This document shows positions 16,494 to 55,888 of a DNA stretch of 64,000 nt, in pieces (position 1 is the first letter of the stretch; every line of letters begins with the position of its first letter). Below the pieces are notes generated by a model. It saw only the letters and a list, made by a program, of their open reading frames with translations. It ran no database searches and was not told the origin of the DNA. The translations under genes were made by a program, and so were the position numbers. The DNA is taken from contig CAWCKM010000018.1 of assembly GCA_963796125.1 (NCBI GenBank), forward strand, positions 1,951-65,950. The letters run 5' to 3'. The DNA comes from Nitrospirota bacterium. GTDB taxonomy: Bacteria > Nitrospirota > Thermodesulfovibrionia > Thermodesulfovibrionales > SM23-35.

Positions 16494-17180
16494 TTGAACC
16501 CTCGAATCCTTGAATCCTCGAACCCTTTCTTTTACAATCAAGAACAAAATTCAATATCAGTCTGTCTAAATATGAAAAGAGAAGAACAGGCTTTCATAGA
16601 CGAAGATGCTGAGATCGTTTCTTTTTGTAAAAAGGGAAATGTTGATGCCTTTGAAGAATTAGTCAGAAAGCACCAGAAAAAGATGCTCAATATTGCATTC
16701 AGGATGATCGGGAACTATGAAGATGCATGCGAGATTGTGCAGGACGCCTTTGTTTCAGCTTATAAGGCTATCAAACATTTCGAAGAGAAGGCCAGATTTT
16801 CTACCTGGCTTTATACAATAGTTGTCAACCTTTCAAGGAACCGTCTGAACCAGTTGAAGATAAAGAACAGCCGTGAAGCTTTTTCAATGGATGATCCTGT
16901 CCTCACAGATAGTAGTGAACTGGCCGTAGAGTTAGCATCCAGTGAACCCTCGGTCCTGGAAAAACTTGAAAAAAGAGATGTGCAACAAAAGGTTCAGGCA
17001 TGCATAGATTCCCTTGACAATGAATTCAAGGAAGTTATCATTCTTAGGGATATGCAGGGGTTTTCTTATGACGAGATCAGTGATATGCTTAAGATGCCGG
17101 GTGGCACTGTTAAATCAAGACTTTTCAGGGCAAGGGAAATGCTCAGAGACTGCCTGAAAAGAGTTATGGGAGATCTGTAG
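16494..17180 (+). CDS. ECF-type RNA polymerase sigma factor
   Basis: Sigma-70 region 2 (DAFEELVRKHQKKMLNIAFRM...DAFVSAYKAI) and region 4 (FSYDEISDMLKMPGGTVKSRLFRARE). The probable start is the ATG at 16572. Confidence 0.85.
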   Translation: MNPRILESSNPFFYNQEQNSISVCLNMKREEQAFIDEDAEIVSFCKKGNVDAFEELVRKHQKKMLNIAFRMIGNYEDACEIVQDAFVSAYKAIKHFEEKARFSTWLYTIVVNLSRNRLNQLKIKNSREAFSMDDPVLTDSSELAVELASSEPSVLEKLEKRDVQQKVQACIDSLDNEFKEVIILRDMQGFSYDEISDMLKMPGGTVKSRLFRAREMLRDCLKRVMGDL

Positions 17181-18223
17181 ATGAAGTGCCAGGACATTCA
17201 GCAAAAGCTGTCTGCTTATGCAGAAGGTATTCTTCATCCTGAAGAAAAGATGCTTGTTGATGAACATCTCAAATCTTGTCCGAAATGTAATGAATCTCTT
17301 GCATCCCTGAGAAAAACTATTGACTATGTCCATCGTCTTGAAAGATGTAGAACCTCCGGCCTGGCTGACTCAGAAAGTTATGGCAAAAATAAAAGCAGAA
17401 GTTCAGCCAAAGAAAAGGATAATACAAAAGCTATTTTATCCTTTGCACATAAAACTTCCTCTTGAAGCTGTTGTTACTGCTTTAATTGCTGTTATTACAA
17501 TTTATATTTTTAAAACAATGCAACCTGAGATGAAGCTTGCTCAAGCACCTTCTGAACATGAGACTGTCATTGCGAGGAGTCCATCAAAAGTAGACGACGA
17601 AGCAATCTCAAAGGAAAAGATTGCTGCGCCCCTGGCTCGCAATGAGAGGAAAAAGTTACCCCCACCCTCGCATCTCTGGCCTCTTAGAAAAGGCACTCCC
17701 TTCATCCCCCCCTTTGGAAAAGACATCCCCGTCCCCCCCTTTGGAAAAGGGGGGCAAGGGGGGATTTGAAGCCGAACAGCCTGTCCCCGCAAAAAAACCA
17801 ATGATTATGGACAAATTGGAAGAAGCACCTCAAGCACCTGCTCAAATTGCAAAACAGGATGAGGTTAGACCTTCAGCAGGTGCTGTAGCAAAAGAGGAAG
17901 CAAAAACTGAGGTTTTATCCCGTGCAGCAAAGGCAAAAGTGTCGGATGAAAAAAGGGAAGTTGTCAATGTCACCGTTCTTGTTAAAGATATTAGGATAGC
18001 CAGAACAGAGATTGAAACGGCTTTAACACAGCTTGGAGGGAAAATAATCAAAAAAGAATTTTTTGAAAATAAAGAAATCCTCACTGCAGAGATTACCTCT
18101 CAGAAACTGACGGAGCTTATTGCAAGACTGAAGAGTATCGGAGATGTTAAAGATAAAGAAATAGATATTCATGCTTTAGAAGTTCATGTTGAAATAGTAA
18201 TAGAGGTAATGAAACAACCATGA
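17181..18223 (+). CDS. anti-sigma factor (zf-HC2 type), frame-broken and carrying a repeat insertion
   Basis: N-terminal MKCQDIQQKLSAYAEG...HLKSCPKCNE, then a TM segment (LPLEAVVTALIAVITIYIF). Split over track ORFs 17181.., 17320.. and 17621... The repeat at 17565-17767 lies inside it. Confidence 0.7.
17565..17767. repeat. composite miniature repeat (GTCATTGCGAG module + C/G-run hairpin module) inside the anti-sigma CDS
   Basis: GTCATTGCGAGG...CGAAGCAATCTC...AGATTGCTGCG...CTCGCAATGAG, followed by CCCCCCTTTGGAAAAG...CCCCCCCTTTGGAAAAGGGGGGCAAGGGGGGATTT. Both modules recur elsewhere (45980, 55357). Confidence 0.65.
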
Positions 18224-18242
18224 GGTAAGAGTAATTCTTCAG

Positions 18243-18431
18243 TTAGATAGCGGCAACTACTACGAATAAAAAAATAGCAGCAGCCAATTGAATAATGAAT
18301 CCGTTAAAGATTCCTTTAGCGAGTTTCAGGTCATCTGAGTTTTCAGATTCATAACAATCGACATAGTCTATGTCGTTTTCATAAATTATTCTTTCCTTGT
18401 CAATAGTATATTCCATGGTCTCTCTCCTCAT
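18243..18431 (-). CDS. hypothetical small membrane protein
   Basis: 62-aa ORF with a C-terminal TM segment (FIIQLAAAIFLFVVVAAI). Confidence 0.3.
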   Translation of the reverse strand: MRRETMEYTIDKERIIYENDIDYVDCYESENSDDLKLAKGIFNGFIIQLAAAIFLFVVVAAI

Positions 18432-18595
18432 TGTGCAATTTAGGGTACTTTAGAGAAGTATTGATTGATGTAATACAAATCACTAATAATTCTTTAGGGA
18501 ACTTTTCTGGAACTACGTTTGTCTTATAAACTAAGACCGGTCAGAGGAAATGAGATTGATGTGCGAGACTAGTTGTCAATTATAATTGTCGCAGA

Positions 18596-18672
18596 AATCA
18601 TTCCGGACTTGATCTGGAGAATCCGACAGGGGATTGTAAAACACTCTGATTCCCGTATCAACGGGAATGACG
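18596..18672. repeat. degenerate member of the TGTCAT...ATGACA hairpin family
   Basis: TCATTCCGGACTTGATCTGGAGAATCC...TGATTCCCGTATCAACGGGAATGACG. Confidence 0.45.
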
Positions 18673-18698
18673 AAACGAGATAACAAAGGAGGTTTGAG

Positions 18699-20174
18699 AT
18701 GAGAACAAAATATCTATTAATTGTTTTGATGGTTATGGTTTTAATGGTAATAGGTTACAGTGCAATGGCAGTTACTGAAAAGTCATCGACCCAACCAGAT
18801 AGATGACAAAAAGGCTGGAGCTCTTTCTACCGGACTGGAAGATCAGACAGGTGTTGCAGTAACGATCTACAATGTCAACCTCGGGCTTGTGAAAGACCAG
18901 AGGGAGATAAAACTCTTAAAGGGTCAGGAGAGTTAAGGTTCATGGATGTGGCATCACAGATAATCCCTACAAGTGTACATATAAAATCTCTCATAGACCC
19001 TGACAGCCTTCAGATTCTTGAACAGAACTATGAGTATGACCTGCTCAATCCTCAGAAACTCCTCGATAAATATGTGGGCAAAGAAGTAAAACTTTACTAC
19101 AAGAACCCATATACTGAGAGAGAAGAGATTGTAACAGCGACTCTTCTATCGAATAATGGCGGCCCAATATTTAAAATCGGTGATGAGATAACCTTCGGGC
19201 ATCCTGGAAGGATAATATTCCCCGGTGTTCCGGAGAATCTCATCTCAAAACCAACCCTTGTCTGGCTCATCGACAATGATCTCTCTACAAATCAAAAGGT
19301 TGAGGCATCATATCTGACAAATGGTATCAACTGGCGGGCTGATTATGTTGTGACACTGAATGACAAGGATGATAAGGCAGATCTTTCAGGCTGGGTCACC
19401 ATTGATAACAAGAGCGGCACAACTTATAAGAACGCAAAACTCAAACTCGTTGCAGGAGATGTAAACAGGGTTAAAGATGAATCTGAATATAAAGACAAGA
19501 TGCTCCGTGTAGCAGAGATGGCAGCAGCAAAGGCACCTGCTCAGTTTCAAGAAGAAGAATTTTTTGAATACCACATATATACCCTGCAGAGACCGTCAAC
19601 GATTAAGGAAAACCAGACAAAACAGATAAGCCTCATCAATGCCGATACAATCCCGGTGAAGAAAGAACTCCTCTACTATGGTGCACGATATTATTACTAT
19701 AACCAGCATGGCGAGGCAATAACAAACGAGAAGGTTGGTGTGTTTGTGGAGATTGCAAATAAGAAAGAAGACAACCTTGGTATCCCCCTTCCAAAAGGCA
19801 CAGTCAGGGTCTACAAACATGACAATGAGGGAAGCCTTCAGTTTGTTGGAGAGGACTCAATAGACCATACACCAAAAGATGAGAAGGTCAGGATAAAGCT
19901 CGGAGACGCCTTTGATGTGGTCGGAAGCAGGAAGCAGACAGACTGGAAAAAGATTGCCTATGATACCTATGAGGCAAGCTTTGAAATCTCCCTTAGAAAT
20001 CATAAGAAAGAGGATGTTGTTGTAAAGGTTGTCGAGCCGATACCAGGAGACTGGAAAATGCTCAGCTCATCCCATGAGTATAAAAAAACAGAGGCATTCA
20101 CTGCAGAATTCAATATCCCTGTCCCAAAAGATAAGGAGACAAAGCTGACATACAGAGTAAGGATGAGATTTTAA
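18699..20174 (+). CDS. DUF4139-like secreted protein (frame-broken N-terminus)
   Basis: Signal peptide MRTKYLLIVLMVMVLMV begins at 18699. VAVTIYNVNLGLVKDQREIKLLKG lies in a second frame. The main ORF is 18942..20174. The family assignment is from memory of the VTIYN...LVKD...YEYDLL pattern. Confidence 0.6.
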
Positions 20175-20179
20175 AACAC

Positions 20180-20459
20180 ACCCCTTTCCCCTCCTTCTCT
20201 GGCCCTCCCCCATCAAGGGGGAGGGAACATTAACCCCTCCTTTGCCTCCCCTTAGACTAGAGGGGACGGTGTAGGTGAACTTGGTCAGCGTCTAACAAAA
20301 TGACTACCTTATCCACTCATCCCTTCCGGTGACATAAGTCGACCGTCATCCCCCTCGTTGACTTAATAGAGATGTAACGAGGCAGAAAATCTCCCCTCAC
20401 CCCTCTTTGCCAAAGAGGGGAATTCCTCCCTTTGGAAAAGGGAGGTAAGGAGGGATTTT
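20180..20459. repeat. cluster of C/G-run hairpin repeats
   Basis: CCCTCCCCCATCAAGGGGGAGGG, CCCCTCTTTGCCAAAGAGGGG and CCTCCCTTTGGAAAAGGGAGGTAAGGAGGGATTTT. Same modules as at 55357-55468. Confidence 0.7.
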
Positions 20460-20498
20460 TAATGCACAAAAATTCATTTTGTTAGACTCTTAAGCTCT

Positions 20499-22143
20499 GT
20501 GAAAAAAGAAATCGTAAAGACAATTGAAACTGCTTTAAAAAACCTCGGCATCGAATCGATACCGGCTATTGAGGTGGAAGTCCCTCCCGAGAGAATCCAT
20601 GGGCGATCTGGCAACGACTGTTGCAATGTCTCTTGCAGGAATAATGAAAAAGCCTCCAAGAGAAATAGCAAAAGATCTTTTCAACTCTATAAGGGATGAA
20701 GCAACTTTCGAAAAGATAGAGATTGCCGGTCCCGGTTTTATCAACTTTACCTTCTCAAAAAATTTCCTGTATTCAAAGCTTAAAAAGATAATCCGCGATA
20801 AAGAGAATGTTTTAAGGGAGGATGTAGGGAAGGGAAAAACAGTGCAAATTGAATTTGTCAGTGCAAACCCCACAGGTCCCCTTCACCTTGGACACGGCAG
20901 GGGCGCTGCCACAGGTCAGGCACTCTGTAACCTCTTAAGAGCTGCCGGCTATAAGGTAGAACGGGAATACTACATAAATGATGCGGGAAAACAGGTAAAG
21001 CTCCTTGGCCTATCAGTGTTTGCACGTTACAAGGAATTGCTTGGAACAGAATATCCCTTTCCGGAAGAAGGCTACAAAGGAGACTACGTTGAAGAGATCG
21101 CTCAGGAAATAATCAATAAAGTGAGCGACAAATTCATCAAGACAGACTTTGAAAAAGCATCGGATTTTTTTATTGACTATTCGTATGCGTTGATGCTTTC
21201 CCGTATTAAAAGAGATTTGGAAGATTTCAGCATCGGGTTCGATACATGGCAGAGTGAAAGAGAACTCTTCAGCAAAGGAGATGTGGAGAAAGCTATCAAT
21301 GACCTCAGGGCAAAGGGTTTCATCTACGAAAAAGATGGTGCAACCTGGTTCAGGTCAACAGCATTCGGAGACGACAAAGACAGGGTGATTATCAAACAGG
21401 ATGGCGAGTATACCTATTTCACTTCTGATATTGCCTATCACAGGAAAAAGGTAGAAAAGCATTATGATGAGCTTATCGATATTTGGGGAGCTGACCATCA
21501 CGGTTATATACCAAGGGTAAAGGCCGTTATCGAGGCCCTCGGTTATCCTCAGGAGAAACTGAAAATTCTGCTTGTCCAGATGGTATCGCTCATGAGAGGC
21601 GGCAAACCCGTGCAGATGTCAAAGAGGGCAGGTGAATTTGTGACCTTGAGAGAGGTAATGGATGAGGTCGGTGTAGATACGACAAAGTTCATATTCCTGA
21701 CAAGAAGACCCGACAGTCATCTTGAGTTTGACATTGAGGTCGCAAAGTCTCAGTCTTCAGAAAACCCCGTCTTCTATGTCCAGTATGCGAATGCACGAAT
21801 AAACAGTATTTTTGCACACGCAAAGGAAAAAGGCTTCAGCACAGAAGGTCTCTGCGATGCAGACCTTGAACTACTCTCCGCTCCTGAGGAAATGAGGATA
21901 ATCAGGAAGCTTCTCATATACCCCATGGTCTTCGAGGGAGCTGCCACTTCTCATGAACCGCACAGGATTACTTTCTACCTTCAGGAACTCTCAGGCATTT
22001 TCCATCCCTACTACAATAAATACAGGGTTGTTGACAGCGACAGAGAGCTAAGCAAGGCACGGCTTGCACTGTGCGAGGCTGTCAGGATAGTGCTCAGGGA
22101 TGGCCTCACCATACTCGGTATCAGTACACCTGAAAAGATGTAA
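20499..22143 (+). CDS. argS: arginyl-tRNA synthetase
   Basis: ANPTGPLHLGHGRGA is the HIGH motif. The N-terminus lies in track ORF 20499..20699. The frame break is at the GGG run at 20601-20603 (CATGGGCGATCTGG; removing one G restores ...ERIHGDLATTVAM). Confidence 0.9.
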
Positions 22144-22180
22144 TTGTGAATATGCATTCAGGCTGGTATAATAGTAACCC

Positions 22181-23099
22181 ATGATAGCCAAAACAAAAAA
22201 GATATGGATGGATGGAAAATTCGTTGACTGGGATAAGGCATCAGTACATATTCTTACCCATACCCTTCATTACGGCCTTGGAGTCTTTGAAGGAATCCGC
22301 TGCTATGAAACTGAAACAGGGCCTGCGGTATTCAGACTTGATGAACATATCGATCGGCTCTTCAATTCTGCCCGCATATTCCTGATGGACATCCCCTATG
22401 CAAAGAAAGACATTAAAAAATGCGGTTATTGAAACAGTACAAATAAATAAGATTAAAGAATGCTATATCAGGCCTCTCGTCTATATAGGCTATGGAGCAA
22501 TGGGCCTCTATGCGCCAAAGAATCCCATTAACGTCTCTATTGCCGTATGGCCATGGGGAGCATACCTCGGCGACAAAGGACTGAAGAACGGCATCACGGG
22601 TCAAGACTTCATCCTTTATCACAAACCATGTGAATTCAAACATGTCAAGAGGTAAGGTTTGCGGCTATTATGTAAATTCACAACTTGCCAAGAAAGAGGC
22701 GATATCATGCGGATATGACGAAGCCCTTTTACTCGACACAGAAGGTTATGTGTCTGAGGGAAGCGGTGAGAATATTTTTATCGTAAGGAAGGGAATTCTG
22801 AAAACTACACCTCTTACCTCAATCCTTGAAGGAATAACACGGAGACAGCATCATCAGGATAGCACATGATGAAGGCATAGAGGTCATAGAAGAAAGGTTC
22901 ACAAGGGACGAACTTTATATCTCTGATGAGGCCTTTTTTACAGGTACAGCAGCAGAGGTTACCCCTATCCGACTGGTTGATGGAAGGAACATTGGTACCG
23001 GCAGACCAGGGCAAGATAACAAAGAGACTTCAGTCTCTATTTTTCAGTATTGTAAAGGGCAGGAATAAGAAGTATGAATCGTGGCTGACAAGGGTTTAG
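22181..23099 (+). CDS. ilvE: branched-chain amino acid aminotransferase (multiple frame breaks)
   Basis: [35 protein letters not shown]... The gene is split over 22181.., 22398.., 22630.. and a fourth frame ([15 protein letters not shown]). Confidence 0.85.
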
Positions 23100-23105
23100 G
23101 ATACT

Positions 23106-23597
23106 TCAGTATTCAATAAAGGTGCGCAGCAAAGCTGCGCACCCTTTTTTATTTATTTCTTTTCCTCCGGCATTGCGCCTTCTTGTTTCATCTCTCTTGG
23201 CTTCATTTCTTCTTTCAGGTTTCTTTCTCTTCGGCTTCATTTCTTCTTTCTTATGGCACTTTGCGCAGTCTGACCCTTCCTGCCAACCAAATACCTTTGT
23301 ACCGCCTACTTCCTTTGTTCCATCATGACATGTTCCACAGTATTTTCCTGCTACATGGTCTTCCTTTGTGACCTTAACACAACCTTCAGTACCCGGTTTT
23401 TTCATCGCAAAAGGAGTGTTGCCTTTGTGACACTCCATGCATTTACCCGGACCAAGTTTCGCATTGTGAAGCTTTCCATCAAAAGTGACTTTCCCTAAAT
23501 CACCGCCTTTGTACTCAAGGACATTCATCCCTGCAAATGCTGATGCAACAAGAGCAAATGCTGCCATTACTCCTAAAAAGATCTTAAATAATCTCAC
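23106..23597 (-). CDS. small trihaem c-type cytochrome with basic C-terminal tail
   Basis: Signal peptide present. Three CxxCH motifs (CMECH, CGTCH, CAKCH). The predicted C-terminus reads through the terminator hairpin, so the 3' end is uncertain. Confidence 0.75.
   Translation of the reverse strand: MRLFKIFLGVMAAFALVASAFAGMNVLEYKGGDLGKVTFDGKLHNAKLGPGKCMECHKGNTPFAMKKPGTEGCVKVTKEDHVAGKYCGTCHDGTKEVGGTKVFGWQEGSDCAKCHKKEEMKPKRKKPERRNEAKRDETRRRNAGGKEINKKGCAALLRTFIEY
23121..23150 (+). terminator. rho-independent terminator (hairpin shared by convergent ilvE and the cytochrome gene)
   Basis: GGTGCGCAGCaaaGCTGCGCACC followed by CTTTTTT. Confidence 0.7.
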
Positions 23598-23852
23598 TAT
23601 TCTTCACCTCCTTTCATAAACTTCATTCCGAACAATTATATAACAAATACTATGCCAGTATAACTCCTGCAATTAATCAACCATATTTTACTGACATCGA
23701 TTCCTTAAATAAGGAAATCTGCCTTTTTAAGGAATCAATATTCTTTTTAACTTTAATGAAACAAGAAGAGGATAGTCAAGTGGAGCACGTATCCCAATTG
23801 CTTTATATACTATTTACATGTTAGGATTTATAATTATTTTTCAGGAGATCAT

Positions 23853-25314
<1,462 letters not shown>

Positions 25315-25396
25315 GAACAGTCATTTGTCAACAGTCAATAGTTGATAGTCAAAAAAACACCCTCACAATAGAAACTCATTGAAGAAGAATTGAGCA

Positions 25397-26941
25397 ATGA
25401 CTCAGACCGAAAAGATTTTAGTCCTTGATTTCGGTTCCCAGTACACTCAGCTCATTGCGAGGCGTGTCAGAGAATGCAAGGTTTATTCGGAAATATTTCC
25501 CTTTAATGCCTCCATTCGAAAAGATAAAGAACTTTAACCCAAAAGGGATCATTCTTTCAGGAGGCCCTTCAAGCGTTTATGATAAGAATGCACCAATCCT
25601 TGATATAGAAGATCTTTGAGCTTGGAATACCTGTGCTCGGTATCTGTTACGGCATGCAGCTCATGGCCCATCTTTTCGGTGGAAAAGTAGCAAAGGCAGC
25701 AAAAAGAGAATATGGGAAGGCAGAGCTCATTATTGACAACAGGATGAGCATTTTTGATGGAATCCCAAATAAAACCACTGTCTGGATGAGCCACGGAGAC
25801 AGGATCATAAAGTATCCCTCTTCTTTTAAACCAATAGCACATACGTCCAACTCACCTGTTGCTGCAATGGCAGATCAAAAGAAAGGATTATATGCATTGC
25901 AGTTTCACCCCGAAGTTATACATACACCAAAAGGTTTTGAGATCCTCAGGAACTTTCTCTTCAAGGTATGCAAATGCAAGCCTGTATGGACGATGAAATC
26001 CTTCATAGAGTCAGCTACAGAAGATATACGGGAAAAGGCCGGCAGGAAAAAAGTTGTATGCGGTATAAGCGGAGGGGTTGATTCTTCTGTAACAGCAGTA
26101 CTGGTTCACAAAGCCATAGGAGACCATCTTACGTGCATCTTCGTAGACAATGGAGTCCTCAGGGCAGGAGAGGCTAAGAAGGTTGAGGAAACTCTGAGGA
26201 AACACTTCCGTATGAAGATACATTGCGTAGATGCCTCTGAACGGTTTTTGAACAGGTTAAAAGGTGTGACTGATCCTGAGGTAAAGAGGAAACGCATTGG
26301 GAACGAATTCATAAAGGTCTTTGAAGAAGAGGCAACAACGATAAAGGGAGTGAAGTTCCTTGCTCAGGGAACATTGTACCCAGATGTAATCGAAAGTGTT
26401 CCCTTTAAAGGTCCTTCTGCTACTATTAAAAGTCATCATAATGTCGGGGGACTCCTGAAGAGGATGAAACTGAAACTCATTGAACCCCTCAGGGAACTAT
26501 TCAAGGATGAAGTACGTGTTTTAGGAAAGGAACTTGGGTTACCTGATGAGATAATAAACCGGCATCCTTTTCCCGGACCCGGTCTCGCCATAAGGGTCAT
26601 CGGAGAGGTTACAAAGGAAAGGTGTGATATATTGAGGAAGGCAGATACCATAGTCCTTGGATGAGATAAAAAAGGCAAGACTGTACACAGAACTCTGGCA
26701 GTCCTTTGCTGTGCTCCTTCCTGTTAAAAGTGTTGGGGTTATGGGTGATGAGAGGACATACGAAAATGTGATCGCTGTCAGGGCTGTAAAGAGCCTCGAC
26801 GGTATGACTGCAGACTGGGCAAGGATTCCCCATGATGTTCTCGGGATTATTTCAAACAGGATAATAAATGAGGTAAAAGGCGTTAACAGGGTGGTTTACG
26901 ATATAAGCTCGAAACCACCAAGTACTATAGAGTGGGAGTAA
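25397..26941 (+). CDS. guaA: GMP synthase (glutamine-hydrolysing), multiple frame breaks
   Basis: [20 protein letters not shown] from the ATG at 25397. [15 protein letters not shown], and C-terminal ...[14 protein letters not shown]. Split over at least four track ORFs. Confidence 0.92.
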
Positions 26942-26986
26942 AACGTAATGCGTTATGAGTAACGTGTTAACAAGTTAGATACGCTA

Positions 26987-27930
26987 ATGGATATAGAGAC
27001 TTATCTGAAAGAAAAACGTGAACTAATTGATTCTTACCTGGAGTCATATTTCAGTATTCCTGCCGAACCTTCACTCCTCCATGAGGCAATGCGGTATTCC
27101 CTTTTTGCAGGAGGCAAAAGAATCCGCCCTATCCTTGCCCTTTCAGCTTACGAAGCATGTGGAAGAGACCCCAAAAATATTATCCCTTATGCTTCAGCGC
27201 TCGAACTTATACATACCTATTCTCTTATCCATGATGACCTGCCTTCCATGGATAATGACGACCTGAGAAGAGGAAAATCAACAAACCATAAAGTATTCGG
27301 TGAAGCTATTGCCATTCTTGCAGGCGATGCCCTTCTCACAGAGGCATTCTTAATGCTGACGAATAATTCCCTTTTCCCCCCCTTAGTAAAGGGGGAGAGA
27401 GAGGGGTTAAAGGGGGTAAGGGGAGATTACATGATGAAATAAAATCATCCTCCTTATTAAAAGCAATAAGGGAGGTTGCTCTTTCTTCCGGCGTTCACGG
27501 CATGGTAGGAGGTCAGGCCATGGATATTTTGTCAGAGAACTCAAAACCTGATAGAGATACCCTTACCTTTATCCACACTCATAAAACAGCAGCTCTCATA
27601 ACAGCATCTGTGAGAATGGGAGGAATACTTGCTGACAGTGATGTAAATACTTTGAAGGCTCTTACAAAGTATGGAGAAAGAATAGGACTTGCTTTCCAGA
27701 TTACTGACGATATCCTTAATGTTGAAGGCAATACCGAGGAACTTGGAAAAGCGGCAGGTTCAGATGCTAAAATGAAGAAAATGACCTATCCGGCATTTTA
27801 TGGAATTGAGAAGTCACGACAAGAAGCCGAAAATTTAGTCGCAGAGGCGATAGATGCACTTGCTCTATTTTCTTCTGATGCAGACCCATTGAGAGCAATC
27901 GCCCGCTACCTCATACAAAGGAGAGTTTGA
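26987..27930 (+). CDS. ispA: (2E,6E)-farnesyl/geranylgeranyl diphosphate synthase, interrupted by a miniature repeat
   Basis: [17 protein letters not shown] (first DDxxD) and FQITDDILN (second). The two halves (26987..27442 and 27502..27930) are in different frames on either side of the repeat at 27368-27428. Confidence 0.88.
27368..27428. repeat. C/G-run hairpin repeat inserted in ispA
   Basis: TTCCCTTTTCCCCCCCCTTAGTAAAGGGGGAGAGAGAGGGGTTAAAGGGGGTAAGGGGAGATT. Confidence 0.7.
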
Positions 27931-29813
27931 TGTATCTGGAATCAATCAAAAGTCCATCAGATCTCAAAAGTCTCTCGATTGCAGAGCTCAAAGTGGCTTG
28001 CAAAAGAGATACGTGAGAACAATATTACGAAAATGTATCAGCAAATGGAGGCCATCTCGCCTCAAACCTTGGTATAGTTGAATTGGCAATCGCTCTCCAT
28101 TATGTATTCAATTCACCTGTAGATAAAATCATATGGGATGTGGGTCATCAGTGTTATCCCCATAAACTCCTCACAGGAAGATACAAAAGATTTTCTACGC
28201 TCAGACAATATGGAGGCATCTCCGGCTTTCCCAAAAGAAATGAGAGTGAACATGATGCCTTCGGTACCGGACATAGTTCCACTTCAATATCAGCGGCTCT
28301 CGGAATAATCGAAGGAAGAGATAAGAAAAAAGAGAACTTTCAAGGTCATAGCTGTTATCGGTGATGGAGCAATGTCTGCCGGGCTTGCTTTCGAAGGATT
28401 AAACAATGCCGGTCACCTCAAGAAAGATCTTATTGTCATCTTAAATGACAATGAAATGTCTATATCCAAAGAATGTTGGTGCTCTCTCTGCATACCTCAA
28501 CAGAATACTGACGGGAGAATTCTATCAGAAATTCAAAAGAGAGACAAAATCTTTCCTCGAAGGAATTCCGAAACTGGGGAAGAGGGCTGCAAGGATAGCT
28601 CAGAGGACAGAGGAGATGCTTAAAGGACTTTTCCTTCCCGGAATCATCTTTGAAGAACTCGGGTTTAATTATATCGGTCCCATAGATGGTCATAACATAG
28701 AGCTTTTAATCGAGACCTTCAAGAGGATAAAAGGAGCAGACATCCCCTACCCTGATACATGCTGTAACAAAAAAGGGAAAGGGTTATAAGTTTTCAGAGA
28801 AAAGACCGTCTTTTTTTCATGGGGTTGGTCCTTTCAAAGTCGAGACAGGATCAATCATCACAGGAGGCGGGTCTACCTATAGTGAAACCTTTGGCAGGAT
28901 TCTGACAGACCTTGCTGCAAAAGATGAGAGGATCGTCGCTATTTCAGCAGCGATGAAAGAAGGCACCGGTCTGAGAGAGTTTGCAGAAAGATACCCGGAC
29001 AGATTCTATGATGTCGGCATTGCTGAACCTCATGCAGTAACCTTCGCAGCAGGACTTGCCACGCAAGGCTTACGGCCTGTCGTAGCCATCTATTCAACCT
29101 TTCTTCAGAGGGCCTATGATGAGATTGTCCATGATGTCTGTCTCCAGAACCTCCCTGTTGTTTTTGCTATCGACAGGGCTGGCATTGTTGGAGAAGACGG
29201 ACCTACCCATAACGGTCTCCTCGACCTGTCATATCTCAGACATATCCCGAATATTGTAGTGATGGCGCCGAAAGATTCTTTTGAACTAAAGGTCATGTTT
29301 GAGCTTGCCCTGCAACATGACGGCCCGTCAGCCATACGGTATCCGAGAGGAAACGTACCCAGCTTTCCTCATTCTTTATATATGCCTTTCCATATTGGAG
29401 AGGCTGAAATTCTTAAGGATGGAGATGAGATTGCTATAATAGCCCTTGGTAATTCTGTCTATCCAGCCGTGTTTGCTGCTGAGCGGCTATACAAGGATGG
29501 TGTAAGCGCGATGGTTGTCAATGCACGGTTTGCAAAACCCCTGGACTGTAATCTCCTGATCTCAACAGCTTCACGGATTAAAAAGATTATCACCGTGGAA
29601 GATAACACCCTGAGCGGTGGTTTTGGCAGTGCTGTGCTTGAATTTCTGAATGATGCAGAGATTCCACATGTAAAAGTCCGTCGACTTGGATTACCGGATG
29701 AATTTATTTGCCAGGGTCATCTTGATGAACTGAGAAAAAAATATGGTCTCGATGAAGAAGGCATATATCAATCCGCACTCTCTCTCCTCAAAGAACCAAC
29801 ATATAGCCATTGA
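27930..29813 (+). CDS. dxs: 1-deoxy-D-xylulose-5-phosphate synthase (multiple frame breaks)
   Basis: The ATG at 27930 overlaps the ispA stop. [31 protein letters not shown], and C-terminal transketolase-like domains. Split over at least five track ORFs. Confidence 0.92.
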
Positions 29814-30595
29814 AGGAAAGATTGGATAAAATTCTCGTCTCAAGAGGGCTTGTAAAATCCAGGGAATTAGCAAAGGCTTTCATTATGGAGGGAAAGGTCT
29901 TTGTGGAGGGCAATAAGATAACAAAGGCCGGTACCCTTGTCAGCGATACTGCAGAGATATCCCTCAGAGAAGGAGTCATGCCTTACGTCAGCAGGGGGGG
30001 CATCAAGCTTGAGGCGGCTATTGATTTCTTCAGCATCGACGTCACCGGGAAGATTATTATGGATGTTGGTTCAGGGACAGGTGGATTTACAGACTGTTTA
30101 CTGAAAAAAGGAGCACAGAAAGTTTACTGCATAGATGTAGGATATGGACAGCTTGCATGGCCTTTGAGAAAAGATCAGAGAGTTGTGCTTATGGAAAGAC
30201 TGAATGTAAGATATCTCGACAGAATAATCCGGGATCAGGAGCAAAGGTTCATGGGTACTGAGTTTGAAGATCTTAGGAAAAGTAATATTGATATGGTCAC
30301 GATGGATGTTTCTTTTATTTCCCTGACCAAGGTAATGCCTGCAGTTCTCGGATGTATCAAGGCAGAAGGTAGAATACTTGCCCTTGTAAAACCTCAGTTT
30401 GAGGTAGGGAAAGGAGAGGTAGGGAAAGGTGGTATTGTAAGAGAAGAAGAAAAGAGATTGAAAGCTGTTGAAAACATCCGGAAAGAGTTAGAAGGCCTCA
30501 GCCTGAGAACAATGGGAGTCTTTCAATCTCCTTTGCCTGGAAGGAGTGGTAACATAGAATACTTTTTATATATGACGAAACATACATGCAAATAG
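29810..30595 (+). CDS. tlyA: TlyA-family rRNA (cytidine-2'-O)-methyltransferase
   Basis: S4-like N-terminus (RLDKILVSRGLVKSRELAKAFI), PYVSRGGIKL, and the SAM motif DVGSGTGGFTD. The ispA-dxs-tlyA order is conserved. Confidence 0.85.
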   Translation: MKERLDKILVSRGLVKSRELAKAFIMEGKVFVEGNKITKAGTLVSDTAEISLREGVMPYVSRGGIKLEAAIDFFSIDVTGKIIMDVGSGTGGFTDCLLKKGAQKVYCIDVGYGQLAWPLRKDQRVVLMERLNVRYLDRIIRDQEQRFMGTEFEDLRKSNIDMVTMDVSFISLTKVMPAVLGCIKAEGRILALVKPQFEVGKGEVGKGGIVREEEKRLKAVENIRKELEGLSLRTMGVFQSPLPGRSGNIEYFLYMTKHTCK

Positions 30596-30631
30596 CTACT
30601 AAGAATCATAATTATGACGACATTGTTAAAT

Positions 30632-30731
30632 AAATCCCTCTAACCTCCCTTTGTCAAGGCAGGCAATATCCCTCTCTTTGGCAAAGATTCTCGCGGCGAG
30701 AGGGGAGATTCCAGACAAGCTGGATATGACA
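30632..30731. repeat. composite miniature repeat (C/G-run hairpins + ...ATGACA end)
   Basis: AAATCCCTCTAACCTCCCTTTGTCAAGG...CCCTCTCTTTGGCAAAGA...GAGGGGAGATTCCAGACAAGCTGGATATGACA. Confidence 0.6.
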
Positions 30732-30779
30732 GACACTTACTTCATAGACTAAAATAGGTTAAAAGTACAGGAGTTTGAA

Positions 30780-31454
30780 ATGGAAGAACAAAAACTTCTC
30801 GGAATAGATTTTTCGACTGCATCGCAAGAGTTAATTGAGGTTATCATTGAGGAATCCGAAGATCCATCAGTATTCACTGAAATCGCAAAAGCAAATATGA
30901 AAAGGCCTGAGATACTTAAGCTGCTCTTAGAAAGCCCTGATGTACCCGAAGAGGCAAGAAATCTTATAAGCGACACTTTACAGGTCCCTGTAGCATTCCA
31001 CGCAGAGGTTCCAAAGGTAAGGAAAACACCCGAGATGCGTTCACTGACACTCCTTCAGAGGATCCAGAGACTGAGTTTTGGCGAGAAGAGGCTCCTCGCT
31101 TTGAGAGGCGGAAAGGAAGTACGTTCCATTCTTATAAAAGATCCCAATAAAGAGATTGTGCTTGCTGTTTTAGACAACCCTAAAATCACGGAAACAGAAA
31201 TCGAGATCATAACAAAGTCACGGTCTGTGCCAGAGGAAGTCTTAAGAAAAATAATAAGGAAAAGAGAATGGATGAAAAACTATGTAATTGTCCTTTCTGT
31301 TGTTTCAAATCCGAAGACGCCAGCCGGCAATGCTGTGCCCCTTCTCAGTGAACTGAAAACAAAAGACCTCTCGATACTCACAAAAAGTAAAAATATCTCT
31401 GAAGCTGTCCGTGCCGCTTCAAAAAGACTTCTTCAAGCGAGAAAGGGCACTTGA
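30780..31454 (+). CDS. hypothetical protein (helical-repeat-like)
   Basis: 224-aa intact ORF. I recognise no catalytic motif. Confidence 0.4.
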   Translation: MEEQKLLGIDFSTASQELIEVIIEESEDPSVFTEIAKANMKRPEILKLLLESPDVPEEARNLISDTLQVPVAFHAEVPKVRKTPEMRSLTLLQRIQRLSFGEKRLLALRGGKEVRSILIKDPNKEIVLAVLDNPKITETEIEIITKSRSVPEEVLRKIIRKREWMKNYVIVLSVVSNPKTPAGNAVPLLSELKTKDLSILTKSKNISEAVRAASKRLLQARKGT

Positions 31455-31535
31455 AACCTGTTGCAATTTTTTCTTAGATACCTTTAAATAAAATCCAAAC
31501 AATTGTGTAAATGCCGGCAACATTAAAGGACCATT

Positions 31536-32700
31536 ATGCTGAGAACGTTCAAAGTAGAGAGACTCCATGCAAGCCTTATCCCTGAATCTACTCTGTTTAA
31601 GGTACTAAAATACCTTGATAGAGAAAAGATAGAAACACCCTTCCTTCTTATTGACAGTGACACAGTCCGGGAAAAAGTATCCCTCATTGGACAGCATATT
31701 AAGGACTCAAAGGTATTTTATGCTGTGAAGGCAAACCCTGACAGAAAGATCCTCAGATTCCTGAACGATCTTAACCTGGGTTTTGAAATATCCTCTGAGG
31801 GAGAACTGGAAATACTTGCGTCCCTCGGTGTAGGGCCCGAAAGGATTATATCAAGCAACCCTGTAAAATCTCTCAAGTTTTTGCGTCTGGCTTCCTCCTA
31901 CGGAATCAATTATTTTTCATATGATTCTGAAGACGAGATAGAAAAACTCTCAAACTATGCTCCTCACTGCAATGTGTATGTAAGGCTTTCCGTACCGAAC
32001 GAAGGCAGCGAGTGGCCCCTGAGCAAAAAGTTCGGCGTAGAACTCGATGAGGCTGCAGCTCTTCTGTCTGCTGCAAAAGAAAAAGGACTCAATCCGGTAG
32101 GAATTACTTTTCATGTTGGCTCTCAGTGCACAAATATTTACAACTGGCATATTGCCCTTGACAAGGCAAGGGCTTTGTGGGGTAAAGCCGAGAAGAATGG
32201 TATAAAACTGACCCTTCTTAATATCGGCGGCGGTTATCCGATAAATTACACAAAACATGTGATCAGTATCGATGCAATCGAGAAACAGGTAAACAACCTT
32301 ATTTATGACTATATTCCCTGAAGACGTTGAAATACATATCGAACCAGGCAGAGCAGTGGTTGGAGATGCCGGCGTATTGGTTACAACAGTAATTGGAAAA
32401 GCCTCCAGATCGGATGAAGACTGGCTTTATATAGACGTAGGCGTTTTTAACGGTCTGATGGAGAGCGTCGGTGGCATAACATACAGCTACATTGTAGAAA
32501 GCTATAAACATGCAAGGTCTAAAAAGAGATGGACACTGGCAGGTCCGAGCTGTGACAGCTTCGATGTGATAGATAAAAATGTAGCTCTCCCGGAACCGAA
32601 CATTGGAAATCTGATTCTCATATTATCAAGTGGTGCCTATACTATATCCTATGCTTCGGAATTCAATGGCTTTTCAATACCAAAAACTATACTGATATAA
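31536..32700 (+). CDS. type III PLP-dependent decarboxylase (Orn/DAP/Arg / carboxynorspermidine decarboxylase family), one frame break
   Basis: FYAVKANPD (PLP lysine), HVGSQ, GGGYP, EPGRAVVGDAG. The break is near 32300. Sits next to two speE genes. Confidence 0.8.
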
Positions 32701-32715
32701 GGAAAGGATGAAACA

Positions 32716-33555
32716 ATGATTAAATTTTTTGAAAAAGCACCATATGCGCCGGTGGAGTACTCCTATGACGTGGAAGAGATCCTTTACAGGGGTAAGAGTA
32801 AGTTTCAGGAAATTAAGGTTATCAGAAACCCGCATTTCGGCAGGATGCTCATCCTTGACGATGTTGTCCAGATTACTGAAAGGGACGAGTTTTTTTACCA
32901 TGAGATGCTCACCCATATCGTCATGCATGCCCATCCGTGTCCAAAGAAGGTAATCGTGATTGGTGGTGGAGACGGAGGAGTTGTGAGAGAAGTGCTCAAG
33001 CATAAAACAGTTGAAAAAGTCTATTTCGTGGAGATAGATGAGGAAGTAATCAACGTTTCAAGGAGATTCTTCCCCGGTGTTGCTTCAGGCGTTGATGATC
33101 CGCGTGTAGAGATAAAAATTATGGACGGAGCGGATTTTGTATTAAAAAGGCAACACGCAGATATAGATGCAGTTATCATTGATTCTACAGATATTATCGG
33201 GTTTGCACGAAGTCTTTTCACGGGAGATTTTTTTACTTCTGTCAAACAGTGTCTTACGAATGATGGCATGTTCGTTACACACACGGAATCGCTCCATTTT
33301 CATAAAGATATGGTTATTGAAATCCAGGAAGTGCTTAAATCCGTCTTCCCTTTGGTCGATCTGTATACTGCTCCTCTTGCAACGTATCCGGGAAACTGGT
33401 GGGTCTTTGCTGTCGCATCAAAAGGTCTCTCGCCGCGTGAGGCAAGACATGACCCGGAGATAATAACAAAATTTTACGATGGAGAAATCCACCGGCAGTC
33501 TTTTATGACAAAAGGTTTGTATGAGAAACTGATGCAGAGAAAGCTTGCATGGTAG
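32716..33555 (+). CDS. speE: spermidine synthase / aminopropyltransferase
   Basis: FQEIKVI....GRMLILDDVVQ.TERDEFFYHEML.H, GGGDGGVVREVLKH and DSTD. Confidence 0.88.
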   Translation: MIKFFEKAPYAPVEYSYDVEEILYRGKSKFQEIKVIRNPHFGRMLILDDVVQITERDEFFYHEMLTHIVMHAHPCPKKVIVIGGGDGGVVREVLKHKTVEKVYFVEIDEEVINVSRRFFPGVASGVDDPRVEIKIMDGADFVLKRQHADIDAVIIDSTDIIGFARSLFTGDFFTSVKQCLTNDGMFVTHTESLHFHKDMVIEIQEVLKSVFPLVDLYTAPLATYPGNWWVFAVASKGLSPREARHDPEIITKFYDGEIHRQSFMTKGLYEKLMQRKLAW

Positions 33556-34405
33556 GAAATTGTCAATTCCAAGCAACAAAAATAACTGGTTCATTGACAA
33601 AGACAGCAGACACAGATGGATATATCACAGGATAAAAAAGCATGTTTTATCAGTTAAGACAAGGTTCCAACAGGTAGAATTCATTGATACTTATGAGCTT
33701 GGACGTCTTGTTGTTCTCGACAACAAAATACAGTCTGCTGAAGCAGATGAGTTTATCTACCATGAAACCCTTGTACATCCTGCTATGATCGCACACCCGG
33801 ACCCGAAGATTGTTCTGATTCTCGGCGGAGGTGAGGGAGCAACTCTCAGAGAGGTTCTGAGACATGGAACAGTTGAAAAAGTCGTCATGGTAGATATTGA
33901 TGAAGAGTTTGTAAGCTTATGCAAAAAACATCTCAGGAACTGGCACCATGGTTCTTTCAACGACAAGCGGGTCGAATTAATTTTCGCCGATGCAAAGGAA
34001 TACATCAGTAACAGCACGCCATTCTTTGATGTTATCATCGCCGACATAAGTGATCCTTTTGAAAAAGGGCCGGCTCAGGAACTATATACCATGAAATTCT
34101 ACTCGGATATAAAAAAGGCTCTCAAGACCACCGGTATCTTTGTGACTCATGTAACAGGTGTTTTCTATACTTCAGGCAGATATCGCTATATGGATATTTT
34201 AAAAACGCTCAATGATATTTTTCCTCTCACACATTTTTATTATGAATATATTCCTAGTTATAGCTCTCTGTGGGGATTTGCCGCTTGCTCTCAAAAATAC
34301 AGCCCCCGAAAGATTTCTCCTGATACGGTATATAAGAGGTTAAAAAAGAGGAATCTCGATTCCCTCTCCTACTATGATAAAGAAACACATACAAAACTTT
34401 TCTAA
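33545..34405 (+). CDS. second spermidine-synthase-family aminopropyltransferase paralogue
   Basis: FQQVEFIDT..LGRLVVLDNKIQSAEADEFIYHETLVH, GGGEGATLREVLRH and ADISDP. Confidence 0.85.
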   Translation: MHGRKLSIPSNKNNWFIDKDSRHRWIYHRIKKHVLSVKTRFQQVEFIDTYELGRLVVLDNKIQSAEADEFIYHETLVHPAMIAHPDPKIVLILGGGEGATLREVLRHGTVEKVVMVDIDEEFVSLCKKHLRNWHHGSFNDKRVELIFADAKEYISNSTPFFDVIIADISDPFEKGPAQELYTMKFYSDIKKALKTTGIFVTHVTGVFYTSGRYRYMDILKTLNDIFPLTHFYYEYIPSYSSLWGFAACSQKYSPRKISPDTVYKRLKKRNLDSLSYYDKETHTKLF

Positions 34406-34628
34406 CTACCCAGGTTTCTCAGAAATTTTCTGTTGAACTCCCCCTTTCCTAAAGGAGTATAGAGGGGCTTACTAAAAATTATTTATGAATACCTGCTTAC
34501 GAATGCTTTTCAAGTCAAAACAACTTTCCTGCCGATGATAGGGTAATCTGGTAACCCTCCGAAATAAAATCAACTGCATTGTCTATTCTTCGAGAAGAAT
34601 ATTGAAACCAGCCTGTTCAAAAAGGTTG

Positions 34629-37145: not shown

Positions 37146-37303
37146 GATTAAAACAATACCACAAAAAAGCCAGAAATGTAATTTTCTTCCGTTAACTTCT
37201 CTATCAAATGTGCAGAGCAGATGATATTGAAAAGAGTGAGACTAACACCTACAAGGTGTAAAAAATAGACAGTGAAGAAAATTAGCGATTATGAAAAGAA
37301 ATG

Positions 37304-37343
37304 AACAATGAGTTCAGCGGGTTCCCCGCTTGAACGATTGGTT
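37304..37343. other. attC-like recombination-site candidate
   Basis: AACAATGAGTTCAGCGGG-ttc-CCCGCTTGAACGATTGGTT. AAC/GTT termini, an unpaired spacer, a CAGCGGG/CCCGCT(T)G stem and a bulged base. 39/40 identical to 39155-39194. Confidence 0.6.
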
Positions 37344-37409: not shown

Positions 37410-39108
37410 TTAAAGATCACGAAAAGCCTCAATAATTGTTTCCAGGCTTTCGTCGCACACGGAACATAGATGTTCAAAATGCTTACGAAAGCTACCATAA
37501 TCTTGTAATGCTTGCTTTCTCACTATTTCTGCTTCGCTTCCAGAAGCATGGCCTTTCAATATGGAGCGTAAGTTATGGATTTCATGGAAGGGTGACATGA
37601 GTTGGTGCGCATGTTCAGCCTCAAAGCCCACAGCAATGAGACATTCTTCAGTAAGTTTTAGAGCTCTTAACTTTATGTCAGGATTTCTGCCAAGCTCTTT
37701 TGCTCTCTTGCGCAACCATTTTTCATCTAAACCCTCAACCACGAGTTGATCGAGATTCAATATTTCCTCCGCCCATTCATCACGAGAAGAGGTATATGGA
37801 TAGTGGACTGTCTTAGGCGCATCTTCGTCCCTTAGAGTCCACCAGCCGACTTTTGCGCGATGTAGCTTGTCAAGCTTATTCTTTAGGCTATAAAGTGCGT
37901 CGTATCCTTCATAAAATTGGCCATCAAAGTCAGTGGTAATTGCTCTTTCAGAAAGTGGCGCTTTGGGCTTTTCATTATATTGTTTCCAATGAAGCTGTTC
38001 TTCGTAAGGAAGATGACTCAAATATATTAGATAGGTATGGACTTGACCTGCTGCATTGACATCGAACGTTTTTAAATGCCATGCGCCACGGCAACCAACT
38101 GATCGACTTTCTAAATGGTATTTTGCCCTATCGCTCTTGTATTTTAACAAGACTTCGGGCTTAAAAAATGCGGGGTTATCTCGAAAGGAAGATCTGACTT
38201 AGTAAAATAATTAGATAACCATGCAGGGTCACATGATATTTCAGCAATCTTTTTATTTTTCCAATCATATGCAATAAACGTTGCGTACTGCTTTGCCTCT
38301 TTGGATTCAGGCTTACCCCACATATTATTTATTATTTTATCCTTTGGAATGCTGATTTTCTTGACCTGAAATCCTCTTGAGTAGCTCCCATAACTCTCGG
38401 AGACTACCAAGCTTCCAAAAATGTTATTCTTACCATCAAATTGTATCGGAGCATTTCGAGAACCCCAGCCGGAAAAACTACCTGATTTATATCGTGTGAA
38501 ATCAAACATACGAACTAATAACATTTTACTTACACTGGTGTACTCTCCAAAGATGTCTTTCTTAATTGTAATAACTGTGCCCGTTTCATTATTCGGCAGC
38601 CTATTTATCTCTATGATTTTTACGATGTCTTCAAAATCGCCAAATCTGTCAAGTCTACACCAAGCACTACGTTCGGACATGAAGTGAATCCCTAATACAT
38701 GAGATATTTTCTGTTCCAACTCAAAGTACAGCTTCTTAGATTCAACCCCTTCAAAAGAGCGACCAAATAATATCGGCTCCCCCTTACTCAGGGTTTTACT
38801 TCCAGCATGAGCAAGGGGTCCTTCAATCCAAGCTTCATCTGAAGAGCATGTTATCCCCCAAGTGGAAAATGGATTATGACTCCAGCCTTGAAGATCATCG
38901 ACGGTTGAGTCATCAATCGCAACCTCCGGTATCAGAACAGCATGAATAAAAATGTGTCGTAAGGATGCATAGATAATAATGTTTTCATCCTCTATTTCTT
39001 TTTCAAGAAAAGGTAGCACATCCTCCTGTCTAACCCAGCTGTGAGGGCGTCTTCCTGTGCTGGTTCTTTGTCAAGCGATAAAATTATTTTGAAGTCGTAT
39101 AGGTTCAT
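37410..39108 (-). CDS. large orphan cassette protein (about 565 aa if two frame breaks are repaired) with an R-x5-H (HEPN-like) C-terminal motif
   Basis: Track ORFs 38144..39019 and 37410..38150 overlap by 7 nt (FLSPKSC* / MLKYKSDRAKY). A further N-terminal piece (MNLYDFKIILSLDKEPAQEDALTAGLDRR) starts at the ATG at 39108 in a third frame. The C-terminus contains FHEIHNLRSILKGHASG. Confidence 0.55.
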
Positions 39109-39154
39109 CACTCATTCAATGTTTCCGCAAATCTTCACACACGGCACACCGATT

Positions 39155-39194
39155 AACAATGAGTTAAGCGGGTTCCCCGCTTGAACGATTGGTT
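39155..39194. other. attC-like recombination-site candidate
   Basis: AACAATGAGTTAAGCGGG-ttc-CCCGCTTGAACGATTGGTT followed by GAAA. Confidence 0.6.
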
Positions 39195-39223: not shown

Positions 39224-39878
39224 TTAAGTTGGCAACGTCCCCAACAGACCCGTCCCGAAGTATTTACTCGTTCTGTTCCTCGACCACAATGCGACGAGGT
39301 TCACGTAGTCAATAAAGGTTAGTTCATCGGGGATTAATCGGCTTTGGCTGCATAACCTGCCAAATTCCTTCTTGAACTTTTTGAAACGTTGGTAGATGAT
39401 GCTTCCACTGGGAATTGTCTTTCGTTTGGACGAAGTTTGTAGCCAGTCTCTTATTTCCGTGACAAGTAATTGATGATTGTTCTTGTGTGTGCGAATATCC
39501 ATTCCTGATATATCAGACAACATCTTTTGGTACCTATATGGATAGCGATCGAGAACTAAACAAACCTTTCTGTTCTGTATTTCTTTGCCAAACCGTTTAG
39601 CACCGAAGAATAAGCCCAGTTCAAATGGCATATTAAATCGAGGTAATTTGCTTTTGGAATCAAGTTCAGTCCTGGAAATATCATGTATTCCGTATTTGCA
39701 TGTTGAGATTCTTTACTTCATTAATCTTTTCCAAGCGAAACTGGCTTGCATCGTTGGTCTCCTTGGAGCAACGTGGAACAAAGCCGGAATCTAACACAAC
39801 AAAAATAGCAGCATCAAATAAAGATTTATAACCTTCGTCGAACGGACAGTTGATAAATACTTGATCGTCGTATCTCAT
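39224..39878 (-). CDS. TIR- / nucleoside 2-deoxyribosyltransferase-like protein (one frame break)
   Basis: Track ORFs 39681..39878 (MRYDDQVFINCPFDEGYKSLFDAAIFVVLDSGFVPRC) and 39224..39631 (MPFELGLFFGAKRFG...VCLVLDR..YRYQKMLSDISGMDI). The alternating beta-strand/helix pattern with a conserved Glu after a strand resembles TIR/NDT flavodoxin-like folds. Its start ATG overlaps the upstream stop (ATGA at 39875-39878). Confidence 0.5.
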
Positions 39879-40522: not shown

Positions 40523-40598
40523 TTCTTCAAGTAAGGCTTCTACGAACGATTATCTTTACGTGCTTCAACAAGTTGTTTTATCATAGACTTTGTTCTGT

Positions 40599-55214: not shown

Positions 55215-55356
55215 TTCTTTCCTCCCTAGTAGATTTTAAGATACAATTCAATTGTTACAATTATGTTACAATTCTGTTAAATTTCTGTTACATATCTCAC
55301 CTCCCTACCAGCGACTTACTCATATAAACGTAAGAAATAATGTATAGAGGGTTCGT

Positions 55357-55468
55357 AAAATCCCCCTCAATCCCCCTTTTCCAAAGGGGGAGATTTCCTT
55401 GGATTCCCCTCTTTGGCAAAAAGGGGTTTGTTCCCTCCCTTTGGCAAAGGGAGGTTAGGAGGGATTTT
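55357..55468. repeat. archetypal triple-hairpin C/G-run repeat
   Basis: AAAATCCCCCTCAATCCCCCTTTTCCAAAGGGGGAG...TTCCCCTCTTTGGCAAAAAGGGG...CCCTCCCTTTGGCAAAGGGAGGTTAGGAGGGATTTT. The termini are inverted copies of each other. Confidence 0.75.
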
Positions 55469-55885: not shown

Positions 55886-55888
55886 ATT

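Follow-up and report, generated by a model that had tools for sequence, protein, structure and literature searches.

Introduction

Rickettsia RPEs, described by Ogata et al. 2000, are dispersed palindromic repeats that, in the passages of PMC10969869 and PMC3733652 that deal with them, are found both in intergenic regions and in frame within functional, often essential protein genes that are unrelated to one another, where the peptide they add is located at positions compatible with the protein fold. GTAG/CGTC REPs are 20-40-nt G+C-rich stem-loops that are mostly extragenic and often arranged as dimers or clusters (Di Nocera et al. 2013, PMC3733652), with a minority residing wholly within ORFs, where the 20-30 aa that they contribute have been proposed to lie in flexible loops or linkers (PMC3733652). 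MITEs and intragenic ERIC/BOX elements are non-autonomous, have inverted arms at their ends and can give rise to in-frame fusions with ORFs of the host (PMC10969869; PMC3184786), and repeat-ORF fusions in general have been reviewed (PMC3184786).

In the 64-kb stretch of Thermodesulfovibrionia DNA analyzed here (referred to throughout as the window), a repeat that we term type A is found between genes and also within a polyprenyl synthase gene, ispA, and an anti-sigma gene. The original prediction, made by reading the window alone, had likened the segment in ispA to the RPEs of Rickettsia, and the analogy is apt, as a dispersed palindromic repeat resides in frame in functional genes: ispA in eight close relatives, the anti-sigma gene in the related contig L001. 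The two differ in that RPE-1 type elements measure approximately 100-150 bp, whereas the ispA insert spans 54 nt and its core module about 21 nt; in that the host is a member of the Nitrospirota (Thermodesulfovibrionia), free-living anaerobes; and in that one loop is here hit repeatedly by several families. Type A is set apart from RPEs on the grounds of size and host. Like the REPs, type A is a short, G+C-rich, imperfect palindrome that is multicopy, mostly extragenic and clustered, but no GTAG or CGTC tag flanks any type A copy, the ends being AAAATCYCC and GGRGGGATTTT, and the element is a nested palindrome whose outer arms repeat the inner arm. With MITEs it shares terminal inverted repeats (AAAATCYCCYC / GGRGRGATTTT), here placed around one to three hairpin modules, but it falls well below the length of typical MITEs (70-300 bp).

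Type A elements behave like RPEs and intragenic REPs, yet fall outside those families by size, tags and phylum. A literature search returned no description of such elements for Nitrospirae, and none of MITEs in Nitrospirae. The cyanobacterial SDR elements of Elhai et al. 2008 are reportedly about 20-30 nt long and hairpin-associated, and are said to insert into repeats and occasionally into genes; they belong to another sequence family and another host phylum, and the comparison serves as a lead only. In-frame palindromic repeats in genes are already established. The most distinctive aspect of this locus is the recurrent hotspot in one essential enzyme, and it adds the free-living anaerobic Thermodesulfovibrionia and a new nested-palindrome family to the short list of in-frame selfish palindromes in essential enzymes.

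Results and discussion

Reading frames and product of ispA

As given in the window (G+C 42.7%), ispA is split between two reading frames. Frame 0 (26987-27442) reads normally at first, then enters a C/G-rich segment and ends at the stop codon at 27440-27442, and frame 2 (27368-27930) is open from 27368 across the repeat to the stop codon at 27930. Both a frame change of a polyprenyl synthase within a C/G-run repeat and a downstream frame open over the whole of that repeat had been anticipated by the original prediction, and the two frames bear this out. With one base restored, the product is 314 aa long and the repaired protein matches PF00348 at 205.6 bits (cut-off 27; E=9e-61) in a profile search, with GGPPS/FPPS as the top PDB matches (E=2e-80). 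The Asp-rich motifs on either side of the insert are intact (Table 1), and the columns D83, D84, D89, D91, D241 and D242 are invariant in an alignment of 35 orthologues. The product of the intact gene is predicted from these matches to be a 314-aa short-chain prenyl-diphosphate synthase of the IspA/GGPPS type.

Table 1. Positions of ispA, its insert, the type A copies and genes with window-only frameshifting indels (numbering of the window; fold z is relative to shuffled controls)
Feature	Position	Strand	Remarks
Anti-sigma gene	17181-18223		8 window-only frameshifting indels (at least 2 net frame changes)
Type A copies in linker of anti-sigma (zf-HC2/DUF2275) gene	17686-17768	+	In frame in L001
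Intergenic composite type A copy	20386-20460	.	Outer arms and two hairpin modules; fold z=-3.0
ispA/GGPPS-type polyprenyl diphosphate synthase gene	26987-27930	+	PF00348, frame reading, orthologues
First Asp-rich motif of ispA	27233-27262	+	5' of insert, intact; residues 83-92
Recognisable repeat element in ispA	27364-27432	+	Left arm AATTCCCTTTT (degenerate), core, G-rich arm repeats, right arm TAAGGGGAGATTACAT
Missing single base (A), cause of frame change	27375-27376	+	Alignment to L001 and L002; probable assembly error
Hairpin core in ispA	27376-27396	+	CCCCCCCTT-AGTA-AAGGGGG(A)
Second Asp-rich motif of ispA, DDILN	27706-27720	+	3' of insert, intact; residues 241-245
dxs	27930-29813	+	Directly 3' of ispA; 6 window-only frameshifting indels, all 1-nt insertions
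Intergenic degenerate type A copy	30626-30710	.	Missing from, or altered in, L001 and L002
Intergenic degenerate type A copy	34438-34471	.	
Intergenic composite type A copy	55357-55470	.	Outer arms and three hairpin modules; fold z=-4.1
Aminotransferase gene			4 window-only frameshifting indels
argS			1 window-only frameshifting indel
guaB			1 window-only frameshifting indel
guaA			At least 1 window-only frameshifting indel
Decarboxylase (speA-like) gene			1 window-only frameshifting indel

Origin of the frame break

Two contigs, retrieved by exact-protein look-ups, were used for comparison at the DNA level: L001, a 33.6-kb JGI contig that is syntenic with 17.1-34.5 kb of the window and 96% identical around ispA, and L002, an 8.2-kb ENA contig that is 95-98% identical to the window. 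In a three-way DNA alignment, the junction reads TTTT-CCCCCCC in the window, TTTTACCCCCCC in L002 and TTTCACCCTCCC in L001, and the sole indel in ispA across the three sequences is the A that is absent from the window between 27375 and 27376. The true reading at the junction is NSLLPPLSKGG.... The expectation that a one-base change at the 5' junction would yield an unbroken enzyme carrying an insertion in a loop was correct, as the added A does exactly this, but the proposed site of the indel, in runs of C8 and G5, was not: the run in the window is C7 (27376-27382), the intact L002 has a C run of equal length, and the lesion is a dropped A. A homopolymer miscount (C8 or G5) was rejected on these grounds.

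Searches with the one-base-repaired protein returned eight orthologues that are 94-97% identical to it; they come from independent JGI, ENA and Logan assemblies, and each of them is intact. Five of these are 314 aa long and three are 321-324 aa, the extra length residing in N-terminal extensions and/or in an insert that is longer by 4 aa. The same segment is present in frame in every one of them, reading NSLLPPLSKGG(E/N)RGV(K/R)GGKGRLH(D/E)EIK.

The surroundings of ispA in the window were compared with L001 and L002 as well, and approximately 30 window-only frameshifting indels were found inside genes between 17 and 34.5 kb, almost all of them 1-nt insertions at non-homopolymer positions (counts per gene in Table 1). 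The genes argS, guaB, guaA, dxs and the aminotransferase gene, all broken in the window, are intact in L001, L002, L163, L166 or L168, including an intact 625-aa dxs in L001, L002, L163 and L168. As simultaneous decay of this many essential genes is not credible at approximately 4% substitution divergence, this stretch must be rich in errors. Given the eight intact relatives and the roughly 30 window-only frameshifts nearby, the break in ispA is very probably not biological but an artefact of assembly in which an A beside the C7 run was dropped.

A real frameshift in this strain, which would leave ispA either as a pseudogene (with another prenyl synthase elsewhere) or as two polypeptides, is highly unlikely. 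The sequence as given is indeed frameshifted, and the lesion is a deletion among window-only genic errors that are otherwise nearly all insertions, which sets it somewhat apart from the errors around it. However, argS, guaB, guaA and dxs are frameshifted in the same way and cannot all be truly broken, the gene is intact in all of the close relatives, no second polyprenyl synthase was found in the 64-kb window, and ispA has no further sign of decay at the same divergence of approximately 4%. As for two polypeptides, there is no start codon or ribosome-binding context for the C-terminal half at the junction, and the first ATG, at 27502, is within the helix that carries GMVGGQ.

Correction at the level of expression, by -1 ribosomal frameshifting on C_CCC_CCC or by transcriptional slippage on C7, would also reconcile the two frames, given that TTC CCC CCC TTA is formally a slippery X_XXY_YYZ heptamer in frame 0 and that a -1 slip there gives exactly the open downstream frame. 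We regard it as exceedingly improbable, as no frameshift is needed to encode the protein in the relatives, where an A interrupts the T4-C7 junction, no outstanding stimulatory structure is present (fold z=-0.5) and the window contains many other frameshifts that are unprogrammed.

The genes ispA, dxs, guaA and several of their neighbours on this contig should not be annotated as pseudogenes, and the stretch from 17 to 34.5 kb needs polishing. Outside 17000-34600, the window has intact long ORFs, such as those at 531-3863 and 8871-11420, and for this reason the error load looks regional. Exact-protein look-ups with an intact 849-aa ORF of the window and with the truncated 151-aa ispA fragment returned no recorded match to either.

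A dispersed nested palindrome

The hairpin core CCYCYCTTTnnnAAAGRGRGG, allowing at most two mismatches, matches the window eight times against an expectation of 0.02, and none of 100 dinucleotide-preserving shuffles reached eight matches. By this count the repeat exceeds chance, and the idea that a palindromic mini-repeat resides inside ispA, between the catalytic halves, is upheld. With the sequences flanking intergenic copies, both in the window and in its relatives, the canonical type A element was derived as AAAATCYCCYC-TMA-[CCYCYCTTTnnnAAAGRGRGG]n-YAA-GGRGRGATTTT with n=1-3, a nested palindrome. Nine hairpin modules are distributed over six sites in the window, including a cluster of two at 20.4 kb and a cluster of three at 55.4 kb. 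Cores are located at 17733 (anti-sigma gene), 20400, 20425, 27376 (ispA), 55371, 55406 and 55434, with degenerate copies at about 30644 and 34438. The element is mainly intergenic in this Thermodesulfovibrionia genome, and across 168 loci (1.85 Mb) from many phyla its core is almost confined to Nitrospirota and Thermodesulfovibrionia loci. Type A may be a selfish or structural intergenic repeat. Rfam contained no known RNA family matching at or near the ispA repeat, and a simple terminator scan called none of the copies at 17-36 kb; no terminator role is claimed for type A.

The anti-sigma gene is a second in-frame carrier of the type A repeat in the window, which the original prediction did not note. 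L001 reads SPLEKVTPSFPPLEKGGKGGFEAEQ in frame in this gene, including PPLEKGGKGGF, and relative to L001 the window has one additional 27-nt module and two frameshifts.

Separately, an Rfam search placed domains D1-D4 of a group II intron (RF02003) at 56658-56797 on the minus strand (77.9 bits, E=2e-15). ORFs of at least 90 aa are absent from the region 55174-56947, and the triple-hairpin cluster at 55357-55470 is approximately 1.2 kb from the RF02003 match.

The insert in ispA

Measured against the empty site, the insert in ispA is 54 nt (18 aa; 27379-27432 in the window) and adds the peptide PLSKGGxRGVxGGKGRLH. A loop insertion of about 20 aa had been predicted; the loop insertion stands, and the size is corrected to 18 aa. 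From anchor to anchor (LLTEAF to GMVGGQ), the DNA is 141 nt when empty vs 195 nt in the lineage of the window. Empty sites in P0021 (L163/L164) and in L083 read AATAAT-CCCGCCTTCCCT-AATAAAATAAA, encoding NNPAFPNKIN. The native loop codons (AATAATCCCCCCTCCCCT, AATCCCCCCTCCCC and AATCCCCCC-like) resemble an arm of a type A element, and because they are C-rich the left edge of the insert is uncertain by a few nucleotides. At the other end, the right outer arm is TAAGGGGAGATTA in ispA and CAAGGGGAGATTTT in an L165 copy located between genes. Besides this right arm, the ispA copy keeps the hairpin core and additional G-rich arm repeats, and the ispA of L084 has kept both outer arms and two hairpins inside the gene.

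Empty sites of baseline length occur in orthologues with a core identity of 85-90% to P0002, and the loop is also short in the distant outgroups L004, L006 and L007 and in solved structures. As the close empty sites, the outgroups and a solved structure all have a short loop, the short form must be ancestral and the segment an insertion. An alignment of orthologues had been suggested with the original prediction, and it shows an insertion that is specific to this lineage. On the basis of these sequence comparisons, ispA carries a real, lineage-specific, in-frame copy of a dispersed palindromic repeat. Presence or absence at orthologous sites is evident both at ispA (filled vs empty) and for the 30.6-kb copy (absent in L001 and L002). 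For type A elements, neither a target-site duplication nor a parent IS was found; with flanks rich in C or in A/T, and with an ambiguous left edge, no duplication could be delimited.

In L166 (8080-8135, the ispA of P0018), a different sequence, CCTCCCTTCATAAGTCGGTACGACTCGCAACCGAGGGAGG, is nested within the hairpin, which suggests a secondary insertion into the element or a replacement of its loop.

Position of the insert and drift of its sequence

In the protein, the insert has the helix following the first Asp-rich motif on one side and the GMVGGQ-bearing helix on the other, a position that we call the E-F loop by the helix lettering of avian FPPS. The HMMER match to a GGPPS of solved structure (7mxz) splits at the insert, with query residues 125-155 opposite residues 133-142 of the chain, so that the loop has 29 residues in the query vs 8 in the chain. 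The insertion point had been thought to correspond to a variable surface loop, which agrees with this split and with the short loop of the solved homologues. In sequence, the insert is far from both of the Asp-rich catalytic motifs.

An AlphaFold model of the intact homologue P0002, built with a 38-sequence alignment, had a mean pLDDT of 50.4 and a pTM of 0.37, which is too poor for a fold search or for placing the insert in three dimensions, and it was therefore used for secondary structure only. The model has a helix at 100-126, coil at 127-153 and a helix at 154-168, its pLDDT is lowest across the insert, and the loop carrying the insert is probably disordered.

When compared with shuffled controls, the ispA copies had fold z values of -0.5 to -1.5 (-0.5 in the window) vs -3.0 and -4.1 for the intergenic composites, from which we infer that the palindrome is no longer maintained as a structure inside ispA. 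Between the window and L001, the insert has diverged by 10.8% vs 3.4% for the rest of ispA (p=0.01). Of the three strain pairs, this was the only one for which the excess was significant, and it therefore lends weak support to relaxed constraint. The hairpin stem of the L001 ispA has two substitutions, and compensatory change was rejected by inspection since these are not at positions paired with one another.

Recurrent insertion into one loop across Thermodesulfovibrionia

In order of their similarity outside the loop, ispA orthologues with empty and with variously filled loops are interleaved, even at 85-90% core identity to P0002, and turnover of the loop must therefore be fast. Among 110 orthologues at 64% identity or more, the stretch between the anchors has a baseline length of 31-32 aa in 46, and the remainder have 34 to 97 aa, corresponding to inserts of +2 to +66 aa. 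Inserts of type A have one to about four modules of the form PP[LF]xKGG.... Inserts of type B read SPPPTPPPSRGRDRVGG in the protein and CCCTCCCCCCTCGAGGGGGAGGG with outer GGGTGGGGG in the DNA, and this second family is likewise a dispersed nested palindrome (CCCTCCCCC-TYRA-GGGGGAGGG), with intergenic copies in L001, L166, L032, L093, the window (20216-20250 and 46300-46335) and Geomonas loci (L014, L020). Type C inserts, KVQSSKFKVQ... and HHASRITHHA, are known from protein alone. The ispA loop must have been colonized independently at least twice, by different families, and it is a recurrent insertion hotspot across Thermodesulfovibrionia, a point that the original prediction had missed.

The occupation of the loop by more than one family also bears on whether the segment in ispA was acquired at all, or is instead a native low-complexity Pro/Gly/Lys loop produced by replication slippage or fold-back synthesis on C-rich codons, its likeness to intergenic copies being convergent. 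The arm-like codons of the empty site (AATAATCCCCCCTCCCCT), the ambiguous left boundary, the lack of any target-site duplication found and the variation in module number among close relatives, in ispA as well as in the anti-sigma gene, would all fit such an origin. Nonetheless, we consider it very unlikely, because slippage on native codons cannot explain why unrelated, dispersed type B palindromes occupy the same loop in other lineages. It is also at odds with the features common to the insert and the intergenic copies, the loop motif as well as the specific right outer arm (YAAGGRGRGATT), and with the presence of both outer arms in the L084 ispA.

In all likelihood, the locus encodes an intact 314-aa enzyme with a lineage-specific, in-frame 54-nt copy of a nested palindrome in its E-F loop, and the frame break is a dropped A, one of approximately 30 assembly errors. 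Under this explanation, a repeat copy would have landed in the C-rich loop codons of ispA (NNPPSP|NKIK), either by transposition with an unseen transposase or by microhomology or template switching at C-rich targets. It may have persisted for the reason that it was in frame, free of stop codons and in a permissive loop away from the Asp-rich motifs. Inside the gene, the copy would then drift as a Gly/Lys/Arg-rich disordered appendage whose modules could expand and contract in multiples of three by slippage. The ispA insert is presumably functionally neutral.

A further proposal is that the E-F loop is a preferred, perhaps sequence-targeted landing pad, in view of its arm-like native codons and the arrival of at least two families, and that the resulting hypervariable, Lys/Arg/Gly-rich, disordered appendage of 0-66 aa has possibly been co-opted, for example in membrane or partner association, and is not merely tolerated. 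This we hold to be unlikely. Regardless of its cause, one loop of one enzyme that ranges from empty sites through inserts of +2 to +66 aa from two or three families constitutes a clean natural series, usable for the study of how proteins tolerate repeat-derived insertions and of how repeats choose their targets.

Just 5' of the ispA start, L001 (9950-10000) and L002 (150-212) have a CATCAC/CACG-rich simple repeat of 30-40 nt (CAGCTCATCACACGTCACAGATCACGCATAACGG) that is lacking in the window and is like the type C HHASRITHHA of other lineages.

Other repeats in the window

Several repeats outside these families were observed in the window. At 39944-40561, a 102-nt unit occurs five times in tandem, with identities of 63-87% to the reference copy. 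Most of this array overlaps a minus-strand ORF (39875-40522), which suggests that this ORF encodes a repeat protein with 34-aa units. A 43-nt direct repeat with a small hairpin (AGCGGGTTCCCCGCT) is present at 37301-37343 and 39152-39194, its two copies being 95% identical and bracketing two minus-strand genes (37410-39019). Lastly, a 79-nt direct repeat is found near gene starts at 59560-59638 and 61401-61479, with copies that are 77% identical and 1.8 kb apart, and may represent a shared regulatory region or leader.
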